This document shows, piece after piece, positions 62 through 32,180 of a stretch of 64,000 nucleotides of DNA. The DNA lies in the NCBI GenBank assembly GCA_934446675.1, contig CAKSEL010000004.1, positions 72,878 through 136,877 of the forward strand, given 5' to 3'. Positions within the stretch are counted from its first letter, which is position 1. Each line of letters starts with the position of its first letter. Below the pieces are notes generated by a model. The model ran no database searches, was not told the DNA's origin, and saw only the letters and a list, made by a program, of their open reading frames with translations. Source of the DNA: an uncultured Eubacteriales bacterium. Lineage in GTDB: Bacteria > Bacillota > Clostridia > Oscillospirales > CAG-382. Made by a program: the position numbers and the translations under genes.

Positions 62-94
62 TAATCATAGCATATTTACAAAGGTGTGATTATT

Positions 95-613
95 TTGAAA
101 AACAAGAAAATACTGACCATAATTCTCAGCCTTATGATATCTGCTCTTGTGCTTGTGTTTTCGGTTATTACGGTCGTCGCATATTCGTCCGACGAAGATC
201 CGCTTGTAACGCTCAGCTACTTAAACGAGGTTGTTATACCAAAGCTTAAAGCAGAGCTCGGCACATCATCACAGAACGGAAATAACGGCTCGGACAGCGT
301 TCAGACAGGCAATTTTTCAAACACGGGCGACGCGTCCGGTACATACGAAACGCTTGAGCTTGACATAGGCGATACACTGCTTGCAAAAAGCGCGCTTGAA
401 ATAATTGTCCGTCCCGGAAGCATCGTAACTGCGGTAAGCCCCTTCAAACAGCAGGGCATTGCCGACATCACCAACGGCAACGAGCTTTACGACGGCGACG
501 AATTCGCAATCAACGCCTACTGCATCATTCCGCGCGGAAACGACGGCAGAGGCATAAGAGTTTTCAGTGAAAAAGCATATGTTCTGATAAGAGGTGAATA
601 CGAAATTGGCTAA
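95..613 (+). CDS. membrane-anchored hypothetical protein
   Basis: Track ORF is 86..613. The GTG at 86 lies inside the SD AAGGTG (81-86), so TTG 95 with an 8-nt spacer is preferred. N-terminal TM helix ILTIILSLMISALVLVFSVITVV. No family recognised. Confidence 0.6.
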   Translation: MKNKKILTIILSLMISALVLVFSVITVVAYSSDEDPLVTLSYLNEVVIPKLKAELGTSSQNGNNGSDSVQTGNFSNTGDASGTYETLELDIGDTLLAKSALEIIVRPGSIVTAVSPFKQQGIADITNGNELYDGDEFAINAYCIIPRGNDGRGIRVFSEKAYVLIRGEYEIG

Positions 614-6323: not shown

Positions 6324-6352
6324 ATTATACAACAAAAGTGACAAATTGTCAA
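6324..6352 (-). promoter_or_regulatory. consensus sigma-A promoter upstream of rny
   Basis: Minus strand TTGACA (6352-6347), 17-nt spacer, TATAAT (6329-6324). Implies a ~290-nt leader before rny. Confidence 0.6.
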
Positions 6353-29890: not shown

Positions 29891-30196
29891 TCAGCCGATC
29901 TTATTGATCTGAACCTTGGAATAGGGCTGTCTGTGTCCCTGCTTCTTCTTTTCGTTCTTCTTGGACTTATACTTAAGAATAACGACTTTCTTTGCCTTGG
30001 CGTTTCTGAGAACAGTACCTTCAGCCTTAACACCGTCTACAAACGGAGTTCCGACCTTGATTCCGTTATCGTCGGAAAGAGCCACTACGTCAAACGATAC
30101 GTTTGCGTTTTCTTCAACGCCGAGCTTCTCAACGAAGATGATGTCGCCCTCTGCTACTTTATACTGCTTTCCGCCGGTCTGAATAACTGCGTACAC
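29891..30196 (-). CDS. rplU: 50S ribosomal protein L21
   Basis: (M)YAVIQTGGKQYKVAEGD. GAGGTG lies 7 nt before GTG 30196; the track GTG 30205 lies inside the SD. Confidence 0.95.
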   Translation of the reverse strand: MYAVIQTGGKQYKVAEGDIIFVEKLGVEENANVSFDVVALSDDNGIKVGTPFVDGVKAEGTVLRNAKAKKVVILKYKSKKNEKKKQGHRQPYSKVQINKIG

Positions 30197-30300
30197 GAAA
30201 AGCACCTCACTTTCTTAATAAGACTCGCTGAACACGGGCTTCCGGTTTCTTCCATATATTATATAAAAGCGCACGGAATTAGCTACCCTTATCATGCGGC
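30197..30300 (-). promoter_or_regulatory. 5' leader of the rplU operon (possible L21-leader-type element)
   Basis: About 100 nt lie between the consensus promoter and rplU. Firmicutes are known to carry an L21 leader motif here. I cannot verify the fold by eye. Confidence 0.3.
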
Positions 30301-30335: not shown

Positions 30336-30376
30336 GGGTTTTGAGAGATTTTTTTGGCATTTATCGGGCAAAAACG

Positions 30377-30405
30377 TTGCATTTTCAGTATTTGCGGTGT
30401 ATAAT
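30377..30405 (+). promoter_or_regulatory. near-consensus promoter of the micropeptide transcript
   Basis: TTGCAT (30377-82), 17-nt spacer, TATAAT (30400-05). The predicted 5' end forms the hairpin TGCCGGT-gtaaaa-ACCGGCA (30412-30431). Confidence 0.55.
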
Positions 30406-30497
30406 AGCTCTTGCCGGTGTAAAAACCGGCAGGGCAGAATCTCTTTGCGGTGGATTTCACCGGCGGTTGCGCCGCCTCTGTAAAGGAGGTGGTGGCT

Positions 30498-30569
30498 ATG
30501 GAAAAGTACATAAGAACCTTTATCTTTGCATTTTTCCTTATATTAGCTTTTACTTTAAAAGCAAAATAA
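30498..30569 (+). CDS. 23-aa hydrophobic micropeptide (candidate type I toxin / small membrane peptide)
   Basis: Not in the ORF track. AAAGGAGGTG SD lies 7 nt before the ATG. Product: MEKYIRTFIFAFFLILAFTLKAK (charged ends, 14-aa hydrophobic core). It has its own promoter, a structured 5' UTR and a convergent antisense promoter. Confidence 0.45.
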   Translation: MEKYIRTFIFAFFLILAFTLKAK

Positions 30570-30645
30570 CCGCCCCTTCGCCAAAAGAGTAGCGGTTATT
30601 AAAACCTAATCATTTCGGCGCAACCGTTTGAGGTCTTGCCTTTGT
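30555..30645 (-). ncRNA. candidate ~90-nt antisense sRNA, convergent with the micropeptide gene
   Basis: Starts downstream of the consensus minus-strand promoter at 30652-30680. Ends at the 9-bp hairpin AATAACCGC/GCGGTTATT (30565-30600), followed on the minus strand by TTGCTTTT. The hairpin covers the peptide stop codon. No meaningful ORF. Confidence 0.4.
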
Positions 30646-30651
30646 ACTTAT

Positions 30652-30680
30652 ATTATATCCGCAAAACCGATATTTGTCAA
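30652..30680 (-). promoter_or_regulatory. consensus sigma-A promoter for the antisense sRNA
   Basis: Minus strand TTGACA (30680-30675), 17-nt spacer, TATAAT (30657-30652). Confidence 0.55.
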
Positions 30681-30730
30681 CATATATGCGAAAAATCTTT
30701 TATATGTTTACATTATTTATATTATATGTC

Positions 30731-30759
30731 TTGACAAAGGTGTGCGCTTGCTATATAAT
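30731..30759 (+). promoter_or_regulatory. consensus sigma-A promoter of the SAM riboswitch-metK transcript
   Basis: TTGACA (30731-36), 17-nt spacer, TATAAT (30754-59). Confidence 0.7.
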
Positions 30760-30782
30760 ATGCTTAAATTTATAAATCTTAA

Positions 30783-30968
30783 TCTTATCAAGAGCGGCTG
30801 AGGGAACAGGACCGAAGATGCCCGGCAACCTGTCCGAACAAAATCCGGACAAGGTGCTACTTCCTGCATGATACCGGCGTTTGCGAAAACGCGCTGCGGT
30901 TATCATGAAAGATGAGAAGTAAACGACTTCTTCCCTGCTCTGATTTTTTCGGTGCAGGGTGTTTTTTT
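30783..30968 (+). promoter_or_regulatory. SAM-I (S-box) riboswitch with terminator expression platform
   Basis: CTTATCAAGAGCGGCTGAGGGA..GGACC..GAAGATGCCCGGCAACC...GGTGCTACTTCCTGCA...GAAAGATGAGAAG matches the S-box core. The terminator is CCCTGCTCTGA/TCGGTGCAGGG (30933-59) plus a T-run. Located upstream of metK. Confidence 0.9.
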
Positions 30969-30995: not shown

Positions 30996-32180
30996 ATGAA
31001 AAAAGTATTATTCACATCGGAATCGGTAACGGAAGGACACCCCGACAAGATATGCGACGCCATATCCGACGCGGTGCTTGACGCCATAATCGAAAAGGAT
31101 CCGACGGCACGCGTTGCCTGCGAAACGGCTATAACCACGGGACTTGTACTCGTAACCGGAGAAGTTACGGCAAACTGCTATGTTGACATTCAGGGAATCG
31201 TGCGCGACACGATACGCGAAATAGGATACGACAGAGCAAAATACGGCTTTGACAGCGACACCTGCGCGGTTATCAGCTCAATTCACGAACAGTCTCCCGA
31301 CATCGCTCTCGGCGTTGACAAATCGCTTGAAGCAAAAGAGGGCGATACCGACAAGTATGACACCGGCGCCGGCGACCAGGGACTTATCTTCGGATATGCC
31401 TGCAACGAAACCAAGGAGCTTATGCCGCTCCCCATCTCTCTTGCGCACAAGCTCGCAAAACGCCTTACCGAGGTCAGAAAGAACGGCACTCTGCCTTATC
31501 TGCGTCCCGACGGAAAAACTCAGGTTACGGTTGAGTACACAGACGGAAAACCGTCAAGAGTCGACGCGGTTGTCGTTTCCTCTCAGCATGATCCCAAAGC
31601 CGAACTTGCGGCTATCAGACGCGACATCATAAGAGAAGTTATCCGTCCCGTAATTCCCGAAGAACTGCTCGACGAAAACACAAGATTCTTTATCAACCCG
31701 ACGGGACGTTTTGTAATAGGCGGTCCCAACGGCGACACCGGTCTTACCGGAAGAAAGATCATTGTCGATACATACGGCGGATATGCGCGTCACGGCGGCG
31801 GAGCATTCTCCGGAAAAGACCCGACAAAGGTTGACAGAAGTGCTGCATATGCCGCAAGATACGTTGCGAAAAACATTGTTGCGGCAGGTCTTGCGGACAA
31901 GTGCGAGGTTCAGATAGCATACGCGATAGGCGTTGCACACCCGATCTCGGTTCTGGTTGACACCTTCGAAACGGCAAAAGCCGACGAGGAAAAAATTTCA
32001 AAGGCTGTTTACAAGTGCTTCGATCTTCGTCCGGCTGCCATAATCGAAATGCTCGACCTCAGAAAGCCTATCTACAAGCAGCTCTCGGCTTACGGTCATC
32101 TCGGCAGAGAAGAACTCGGTGTTACATGGGAAAAAACCGACCGCGCAGAGGCTCTCAAAAAGGCGGTTGCGGAACTTTAA
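30996..32180 (+). CDS. metK: S-adenosylmethionine synthetase
   Basis: [64 protein letters not shown] 30996 follows AAAGAAAGGAA; the track start 30912 lies inside the riboswitch. Confidence 0.97.

Follow-up and report, generated by a model that had tools for sequence, protein, structure and literature searches.

What does the 800-bp divergent intergenic region between rplU on one side and the S-adenosylmethionine (SAM) riboswitch and metK on the other encode in an uncultured Eubacteriales bacterium of the CAG-382 lineage? We addressed this question for a stretch of 64,000 nucleotides (nt) of contig CAKSEL010000004.1 (assembly GCA_934446675.1), referred to here as the window. An earlier analysis of the DNA letters alone, which we call the sequence-only reading, had proposed an unannotated type I toxin-antitoxin (TA)–like locus at positions 30377 to 30680 of the window, consisting of a gene for a hydrophobic peptide with a sequestered Shine-Dalgarno (SD) site, an antisense RNA that overlaps the 3' end of the gene, and pairing between the two ends of the mRNA. 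Comparative data support this proposal. The locus is probably a chromosomal type I TA–like module of a previously undescribed family, with "type I TA–like" being, in our judgment, the right strength for a claim that derives from comparison of sequences.

A module shared among gut metagenome contigs

A single metagenome scan with the 3' block GGCGCAACCGNNNGAGGTCTTG as the search pattern returned 36 loci. Seventeen of these loci are genuine homologues with ~75% identity over exactly the module or a part of it, including two (L099 and L120) that belong to a syntenic sister lineage described below, and the others are chance matches in G+C-rich DNA. About 14 distinct modules were found in gut metagenome contigs, in unrelated chromosomal contexts whose genes encode an SDR protein, an ABC ATPase, an AraC regulator, prephenate dehydrogenase, an Fe-hydrogenase, M23 and M14 peptidases, or HicB. 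The peptide open reading frame (ORF) and both promoters are conserved across the complete modules. The order of parts is constant in every complete member: a near-consensus plus-strand (sigma-70) promoter; a 5' hairpin; the left arm GGGCAAGAYCTC of a first long-range helix (LR1); a variable hairpin; the left arm CGGTTGYGCC of a second long-range helix (LR2); an anti-SD/SD hairpin, often CCC-GAAA-GGG; an ATG at fixed spacing from the SD, with an ORF of 23 to 28 codons; the stop codon within a TAACCGCC...GGCGGTTA hairpin; a spacer; the 3' block; and convergent –10 and –35 boxes, the –10 box in each member ending at a distance of 32 to 37 nt from where the 3' block begins.

The proposed ORF was recovered by direct extraction at 30498–30569 on the plus strand; it is intact in the window and encodes the 23–amino acid (aa) peptide MEKYIRTFIFAFFLILAFTLKAK. 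This peptide has an uncharged core of 14 residues between basic residues, a net charge of +3, a grand average of hydropathy (GRAVY) of 1.03, and a K/R-rich end, and its ATG is located 6 nt from a GGAGGTG sequence that is the strongest SD in the family. All family peptides have a hydrophobic core and a K/R-rich C-terminus, and they form a subfamily 1 (M-x-[KR]-[YF]-I-[RG]-F-...-A-F-[TS]-[LI]-K-V-[KRN], 23–24 aa) and a subfamily 2 (MEIAYIIAMAVVAVTAIVVNRSAKK-like, 25–28 aa). Substitutions among the ~10 peptide variants stay within a residue class, with one hydrophobic residue replacing another, K exchanging with R, and T with S. The nine differences between the ORFs of L100 and L109 are all synonymous third-position changes, with 0 nonsynonymous ones, and L107 differs from L100 by 10 synonymous and 6 nonsynonymous changes, corresponding to a ratio of nonsynonymous to synonymous polymorphism (pN/pS) of 0.17; most pairs within subfamily 1 yielded values of 0.3 to 0.6. 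Judged from these comparisons, the ORF is almost certainly coding and under purifying selection. The view that the peptide belongs to no known family also held: ten family peptides gave no toxin-family match in Pfam or NCBIfam at E ≤ 10 (Fst, Hok/Gef, Ldr, Ibs, TisB, ShoB, TxpA, and others), the exact family peptides were absent from a collection of 15 billion proteins, and the peptide strings and the 3' block were absent from 8 million full texts. Searches of phage, plasmid, and viral contigs yielded no match to the module.

On the minus strand, the predicted promoter of the antisense gene (30652–30680) is a perfect TTGACA-N17-TATAAT sequence with 12 of 12 consensus bases. Only four such sites are present in the 64-kb window, compared with 0.02 expected from shuffled sequences, and three of them, those of rplU, metK, and the antisense gene, fall within the 800-bp rplU/metK region. 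Transcription from this promoter would yield a small RNA (sRNA) of ~90 nt (30556–30646, minus strand), the candidate antitoxin, whose complementarity to the last ~90 nt at the 3' end of the mRNA is perfect and takes in the final four codons of the ORF. In its first ~25 nt, the sRNA repeats, in the same sense, the arms in the 5' untranslated region (UTR) of the mRNA.

A G+C-rich hairpin of 9 bp at 30565–30600, overlapping the stop codon, was described in the sequence-only reading as followed by a T-run only on the minus strand, and it proved to be both present and conserved, with 96% of cells paired in the alignment described below (helix 6) and with two pairs that covary. In the family, the U-tract of the sRNA is specified by Lys/Arg codons together with the stop codon of the ORF, so that the minus strand always has one; in the window it (30556–30564) is specified by Lys codons. 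The plus-strand T-run beyond the hairpin differs among family members and is poor in the window, giving a weak or partial terminator there. For the sRNA, the hairpin is predicted to act as an intrinsic terminator. A covariance model of the sRNA, built from 14 family members, scored 69 to 95 bits on 16 of the 17 family sRNA copies and had a sole match in the window, at 30554–30647 on the minus strand with 91 bits. No cassette was found by blastn, tblastn, or this model in the 80 rplU neighborhoods of other species listed from GTDB representative genomes (L21 identity of 53 to 82%), a listing that may lack the closest species; a 27-bit match of the model in L014 corresponds only to the terminator after rpmA and not to the module. 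Given its promoter, terminator, and fixed spacing, a convergent sRNA of ~90 nt very probably exists at the locus.

Predicted folding of the mRNA

The plus-strand promoter at 30377–30405 was found by direct extraction as it had been proposed, TTGCAT-N17-TATAAT, with a predicted start near 30411. Its –35 box is weak, matching the consensus at 3 of 6 bases, and it was for this reason not listed by our promoter scan; at the homologous position, most family members carry TTGACA-N16/17-TATAAT. The mRNA is predicted to be ~200 to 235 nt long, the larger size (30411–30645, ~235 nt) applying if the stop-codon hairpin is read through and transcription continues to where the 3' pairing arm ends. The 235-nt plus-strand RNA has a minimum free energy (MFE) of –90.8 kcal/mol, compared with –61.5 ± 4.5 kcal/mol for shuffled sequences (z = –6.6).

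The MFE structure is closed by a long-range pairing of the mRNA ends. The sequence-only reading had noted an exact 11-nt inverted repeat between 30464–30474 and 30616–30626, and this repeat is the core of a longer, bipartite pairing of 22 bp. The LR1 left arm GGCAGAATCTC (30433–30443) pairs with GAGGTCTTGCC (30630–30640), and the LR2 left arm CGGTTGCGCCG (30464–30474), whose sequence recurs in the 5' part of the sRNA, pairs with CGGCGCAACCG (30616–30626; helix 4, 97% paired). The right arms of both helices constitute the 3' pairing block GGCGCAACCG-TTT-GAGGTCTTGCC (30616–30640), which on the minus strand corresponds to the 5' single-stranded part of the sRNA. All 17 family sequences that were folded show the long-range pairing in their MFE structure.

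We examined the proposed helices in a nine-sequence alignment, with partners slid by 1 to 3 columns as the control. For the six helices, 93% of cells are paired, compared with 35 to 49% in the slid controls, and compensatory changes are apparent in the 5' hairpin and the terminator stem. The 5'-terminal hairpin of 7 bp (30412–30431; helix 1, 96.8% paired) is present and conserved, with a loop-closing pair that covaries among AU, UA, CG, GC, and GU. A small hairpin of 5 bp, CGGTG/CACCG (30448–30462; helix 3, 78% paired), separates the left arms of LR1 and LR2 at a site that is variable in the family, with some members containing a longer inserted hairpin.

Two competing hairpins had been proposed as a switch, and both can be formed by the window sequence. 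The anti-SD/SD hairpin GCCGCCTC/GAGGTGGT (30471–30493), which buries the GGAGGTG site (SD at 30485–30491), is conserved (helix 5, 92% of cells paired). The GGCGG/CCGCC hairpin (30462–30476) is not: CCGCC is replaced by GCCAT in most relatives, so that GGCGG/CCGCC was rejected as a conserved switch element and the two-hairpin switch is unsupported as written. The base of the anti-SD hairpin (30471–30474) overlaps with the LR2 left arm. With the 5'-3' pairing formed, the unpaired probability of the SD is 0.11, and it is 0.01 when the 3' arm is blocked or absent; the anti-SD helix is predicted thermodynamically to extend from 4 bp to 8–10 bp once 30471–30474 is freed. Sequestration of the SD, with an unpaired probability of 0.01 to 0.11 in all modeled states, thus constitutes a predicted intrinsic repression.

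The pattern of substitution in the long-range helices is informative with regard to the strand on which they act. At left-arm positions occupied by A or C, 9 of 11 show A>G or C>T changes that maintain G-U pairs on the plus strand, whereas only 2 of the 11 G or T positions show the corresponding transitions, which would be disruptive (Fisher p = 0.009). Such an asymmetry cannot arise from a strand-symmetric mutation bias. Several of the long-range pairs are G-U on the plus strand, and the minus strand would have A-C mismatches in their place. In the family, the right arm is fixed, and the 3' block is identical in the sister lineage; the fixation arises partly because the block was the search pattern and partly because the arm is also sRNA. 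The LR2 end pair undergoes a compensatory change from G-C to A-U between the window and the sister lineage, and the second module copy of L118, which was found without the search pattern, combines the right arm GGCATAACCG with the left arm CGGTTATGTC, a double compensatory change. The left arm and the sRNA being of the same sense, a partner for the left arm is available only in plus-strand RNA that extends past the stop-codon hairpin, and at least some of the mRNA must therefore reach ~30641. On the strength of the models and these substitutions, there is a good likelihood that the 5'-3' pairing of the mRNA is real.

Turnover of the module and competing explanations

An identical L21 protein is found in three contexts that bear on the fate of the module: the sister lineage, L084, and L082/L085. 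In L084, whose flanks are 96 to 99% identical to those of the window, the region 30363–30716 shows a presence/absence polymorphism: 30363–30641 and 30657–30716 are gone and 30642–30656 is left, with the junction GGCATTT + TTGTACTTATATTAT + TTATATTATATGTC, and both promoters, the ORF, and the sRNA gene are therefore missing. The contigs L082 and L085 retain rplU but have no module. Given that the left edge of the module (30363–30396) is kept in L082/L085, loss of the module in L084 is suggested rather than gain in the window. L082 and L085 (2594–2685, minus strand) are rearranged upstream of the rplU promoter, at the equivalent of ~30396, where homology to the window ends inside the plus-strand promoter of the module and is followed by a tRNA-Ser(GGA) gene with its own TTGACA/TATAAT promoter and then by epimerase and cellulase genes in place of metK.

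The sister lineage (L083, L086–L090, L099, and L120; eight contigs) is ~93% identical to the window over 3.5 kb and has the module. Across the six aligned sequences, the 5' UTR (30439–30473) and the 3' block (30617–30640) are invariant but for one substitution in L088/L089, and the minus-strand promoter is unchanged but for one point change each in L086 and L090. The center of the ORF differs at 19 positions over 22 codons. All eight contigs share a 1-nt deletion in codon 3, which changes ATG AAC AGA TAC to ATG AAC GAT ACA TAA and leaves the hydrophobic frame without an ATG, and they keep the sRNA gene and its promoter. With the base restored, the peptide would be MNRYIRFIIFVVLIAIAFSIKVR, which is close to other family members. 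By its sequence, the sister lineage is one with a frameshifted toxin gene, if toxin it is, beside an intact sRNA gene. In this lineage (L086, for example, in the equivalent of window positions 30445–30569), the hydrophobic frame after the frameshift is continuous with an upstream TTG that is preceded at 5 nt by AAGGA, giving a possible ORF of 41 aa (MRWISPAVAP.PKGCGCYERYIRFIIF...); the same frame is closed by TAA in the window. Replacement of the frameshifted ORF by this TTG-initiated one is possible, with the AAGGA sequence in its favor. Comparison with L092 and L115, however, reveals a simple 1-nt deletion in ATG AAC AGA TAC, and pseudogenization is therefore the simpler reading.

Other members of the family have been duplicated or reduced. 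L118 (7100–7870, minus strand) contains two complete modules in tandem, ~380 bp apart, each with a CGCCG...CGGCG hairpin ahead of it. The two have different LR2 cores (GGCGCAACCG and GGCATAACCG), with a matching left arm in each copy, so the two may form a naturally orthogonal pair. L092 looks recombinant, with a 5' UTR of the copy-2 type and a 3' block of the copy-1 type. L125 (2866–2967, plus strand) contains the sRNA gene as an orphan (83 bits); it has a TTGACA-N17-TATAAT promoter and a terminator of its own and is located between prephenate dehydrogenase and M14 carboxypeptidase genes with no ORF or 5' UTR upstream. In L100, the sRNA promoter and the first ~30 nt of the sRNA recur, inverted and without a mismatch, as the 5' end of the mRNA, and the 5' UTR arms and the sRNA are therefore paralogous. 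In the L110 module (73–358, minus strand), the ORF is interrupted midway by a 1-base insertion that abolishes the hydrophobic core (MNKYIGFVFFVPYHSDSF...), and the sRNA region is intact, which reflects either a second independent toxin pseudogene or an assembly error (contig coverage of 5.6×). The most divergent module, in L123 (4708–5100, minus strand), encodes a 28-aa peptide, MWVALVCITIVAVVVIVAVLAASKNAKK, has a duplicated LR2 left arm, and directly adjoins a HicB-like antitoxin gene, with which it may form a small TA island. The clean absence in L084, the frameshifts with retention of the sRNA, the orphan sRNA gene, and the tandem copies are together the behavior expected of a dispensable toxin/antitoxin cassette.

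On the basis of these features, we propose a mechanism for the module. The sRNA would be made in excess over the mRNA, an expectation that follows from the 12/12 consensus of its promoter compared with 9/12 for that of the mRNA. It would pair with the 3' ~90 nt of the mRNA and displace the 5' UTR arm, and the freed segment (30471–30474) would lengthen the anti-SD hairpin from 4 bp to 8–10 bp and so block translation; the sRNA-mRNA duplex would also be a substrate for RNase III–type decay. On loss of the sRNA, the mRNA would be translated and the peptide would insert into and damage the membrane. A bolder version, which we put forward only tentatively, treats the sRNA as a mimic, or paralogue, of the mRNA 5' UTR within a promoter-to-promoter inverted repeat around a mini-ORF. 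Strand displacement at the 3' arm would then flip the SD hairpin from weak to strong in addition to inducing duplex decay, and specificity would be set by the 10-nt LR2 core in the manner of a programmable code, so that tandem copies such as those of L118 could coexist orthogonally.

Several observations weigh against a TA assignment. The window peptide is the most divergent of subfamily 1, with pN/pS values of 0.5 to 1.0 relative to its relatives and of >1 relative to the frameshift-repaired ORF of the sister lineage. The hydrophobic core of subfamily 1, at only 14 residues, is short for a membrane-spanning helix, and 23 aa is less than the quoted toxin lengths of 28–60 aa for Bacillus subtilis and 34–59 aa for Clostridioides difficile. 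The SD is predicted to be sequestered in every state, so that the modeled switch is modest; no clear terminator follows the 3' arm on the plus-strand RNA; and the invariance of the 3' block in the metagenome set is partly an artefact of its use as the search pattern. With these points taken into account, we still lean toward toxin and antitoxin functions for the two products.

Some of the same observations would suit a gene whose small membrane protein is not toxic, such as a micro-protein of regulatory or accessory function, with expression adjusted by a cis-antisense RNA and with no addiction or toxin role. Neither purifying selection on the ORF nor a conserved antisense gene requires toxicity, the core is short, and the modules reside in ordinary chromosomal contexts rather than in prophages or plasmids. 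We nonetheless consider this explanation unlikely. The module is a self-contained promoter-to-promoter unit that moves between unrelated contexts, it occurs in tandem copies with covarying specificity arms, and it is cleanly absent from the near-identical L084. Its ORF has been inactivated repeatedly while the sRNA persists, even as an sRNA-only locus, a mode of decay expected of a toxin/antitoxin pair and not of a membrane protein that is useful to the cell, and the layering of repression by a buried SD, a 5'-3' lock, and antisense RNA is typical of toxic products.

Improbable, in our estimation, is a structured noncoding or selfish palindromic element, similar to a miniature inverted-repeat transposable element (MITE), in which the ORF would be incidental. 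Long inverted repeats do bound the unit (that of L100 is perfect over ~75 nt), the element is polymorphic for presence, and its RNA structure is very stable. Such an element would not, however, account for the synonymous nature of 9 of 9 differences between L100 and L109, the maintenance of residue class across ~10 peptide variants, or the ATG and SD conserved at fixed spacing, and variation restricted to G-U pairs reflects selection on RNA of one strand rather than on a DNA repeat. Excision of a MITE was rejected as an explanation for L084, there being no target-site duplication and the left deletion boundary (30363) lying 70 nt outside the repeat.

A cis-regulatory role for the flanking genes, whether as an attenuator or leader peptide of metK or as an upstream sense or antisense transcript controlling rplU-prp-rpmA-obg, would be in keeping with the position of the module between rplU and the SAM riboswitch, with the lack of a strong plus-strand terminator before metK, and with a window peptide that is Phe-rich like some leader peptides, but it is very improbable, given that homologous modules adjoin entirely different genes, that rplU and metK are each equipped with a perfect promoter and with a leader or riboswitch of their own, that L084 and L082/L085 keep rplU with an identical L21 but no module, and that no such element is found upstream of rplU in the related species listed. 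A Phe-type leader-peptide attenuator was rejected because the peptides of relatives are Ile/Leu/Val-rich rather than Phe-rich and the flanking genes differ, and an upstream promoter or leader for metK or rplU was rejected because both genes have their own perfect promoters and leaders and because relatives lack the module.

Chromosomal setting, known type I systems, and implications

The window has a G+C content of 45.8% and is matched with 100% identity by a human-gut metagenome contig (L081/L091, the former being k141_1501800 of ERZ27286966); the nearest named genomes among the matches listed are metagenome-assembled genomes of uncultured Clostridia/Oscillospiraceae. To the left of the module, the rplU-prp-rpmA-obg operon is encoded on the minus strand. 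The real start codon of rplU is the GTG at 30196 and not the GTG at 30205, which would yield an over-long protein; exact look-ups of the over-long L21 and of a 39-aa ORF with a GTG start returned no match. The rplU promoter (30335–30307, minus strand) is a perfect TTGACA-N17-TATAAT sequence with a TG extension and is followed by a match to the L21 leader (RF00559; 30211–30311, minus strand) that is sub-threshold at 22.3 bits compared with a threshold of 36. In more distant species, the L21-leader region is the sole conserved part of the intergenic region. To the right, a perfect consensus promoter (30731–30759, plus strand) and a SAM-I riboswitch (30782–30918, plus strand; 68.4 bits) precede metK at 30998, an arrangement that is ordinary S-box control. 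An AATCTT hexamer just upstream of the riboswitch (30776–30790) is present in two copies in the window and four in L084, so that the stretch from the metK promoter to the riboswitch is polymorphic in the length of a small tandem repeat. The fourth perfect promoter site of the window lies at 6324–6352 on the minus strand, with its –35 box inside a palindrome, TGACAATTTGTCA, that looks like an operator overlapping the promoter.

T1TAdb lists 24 type I families and describes a type I toxin mRNA as 150 to 400 nt in length and encoding a small (20–60 aa), hydrophobic protein; the predicted mRNA of 200 to 235 nt and its 23-aa ORF fall within these ranges. The Gram-positive organization given there, with the antisense RNA on the 3' side of the toxin mRNA and in partial overlap with the ORF, is also found here in silico, as is a predicted separate antisense RNA (promoter, minus-strand terminator, fixed spacing, and 91-bit match). 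A close resemblance is to the B. subtilis systems bsrG/SR4, txpA/RatA, bsrE/SR5, and yonT/SR6, in which the genes are convergent and the antisense RNA overlaps the mRNA at its 3' end, reaching into the end of the ORF. In bsrG/SR4, as in the module, the SD lies in a short hairpin and an outer helix joins the region 5' of this hairpin to that just after the stop codon. These likenesses explain why the Rfam BsrG model (RF01412) aligned in four members (24.7 bits in the window and 22.1 to 24.7 bits in L095, L103, and L106), always over model positions 25–154, which cover the SD hairpin, the ORF, and the outer helix. The scores are below the gathering score of 55, and Rfam contains no family for the locus; the match is architectural resemblance and not family membership. 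SR4 was shown experimentally to lengthen the SD helix of bsrG mRNA from 4 to 8 bp (PMC3834814), a result mirrored by the extension from 4 to 8–10 bp predicted here on thermodynamic grounds only. The module differs from bsrG/SR4 in its shorter peptide (23–28 aa versus 38 aa for BsrG), its shorter sRNA (~90 versus 180 nt), and its location outside of a prophage, and bipartite 5'-3' pairing and an sRNA that copies the 5' UTR in the sense direction have not been described for bsrG/SR4.

The 5'-3' lock on the mRNA and the sequestered SD are shared with hok/sok of plasmid R1 and aapA1/IsoA1 of Helicobacter pylori, long-distance 5'-3' pairing having been found for the module in silico. Processing of the 3' end of hok mRNA reportedly triggers its refolding, as attributed to Franch et al. 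in 1997. In both systems, mRNA folding is the main layer of control (for AapA, PMC6733600). Both systems are Gram-negative, their antisense RNAs are opposite the 5' part of the mRNA whereas that of the module is opposite the 3' end and its pairing arm, there is no similarity in peptide or RNA, and the module has no leader ORF such as mok.

In fst/RNA II (par of pAD1, Enterococcus), transcription is also convergent over a shared hairpin terminator, the peptide is hydrophobic with a charged C-terminus, a 5' structure limits translation, and repeats at the ends relate the two RNAs. The end repeats of par are direct, however, giving RNA II complementarity to RNA I at its 5' end and at the translation initiation region, whereas those of the module are inverted, with the consequence that the sRNA is identical to the mRNA 5' UTR and can pair only with the 3' region of the mRNA; direct repeats of the par type were not found in the module, and Pfam yielded no match to any Fst-type family. 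The type I systems of C. difficile (CD2517.1/RCd8 and others) likewise belong to Clostridia and have hydrophobic toxins with a charged C-terminus and cis-antisense RNAs, but the toxins are 34–59 aa long and are encoded in prophages or next to CRISPR arrays, compared with 23–28 aa and a housekeeping intergenic region for the module, and no sequence similarity was detected. The Ibs peptides of Escherichia coli are only 18 to 19 aa in length. The Ibs/Sib systems resemble the module in their very short hydrophobic peptides and tandem or multiple copies; Sib spans the whole ibs ORF, whereas the overlap in the module is limited to the last four codons, and the two belong to different phyla and show no similarity.

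Described type I families are almost all from cultured Proteobacteria, Bacilli, and C. difficile, and the module would add a family in uncultured gut Clostridia, whose peptides are called by no annotation pipeline. Its predicted architecture joins the 5'-3' mRNA lock of Gram-negative systems with the 3'-overlapping antisense RNA of Gram-positive ones, with the antisense RNA additionally copying the 5' UTR. If the module is confirmed, L084, which has no module, and the sister lineage, with its frameshifted putative toxin gene, would be natural knock-outs for the function of a chromosomal type I module, and the module would be a compact RNA switch of ~300 bp for which L118 may already provide a natural orthogonal pair. 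The module is solidly a testable new family and not a new principle, unless strand displacement by a 5' UTR mimic is confirmed; such a logic has not been described for type I TA families and, if real, would be widespread among the uncultured Clostridia of the gut.

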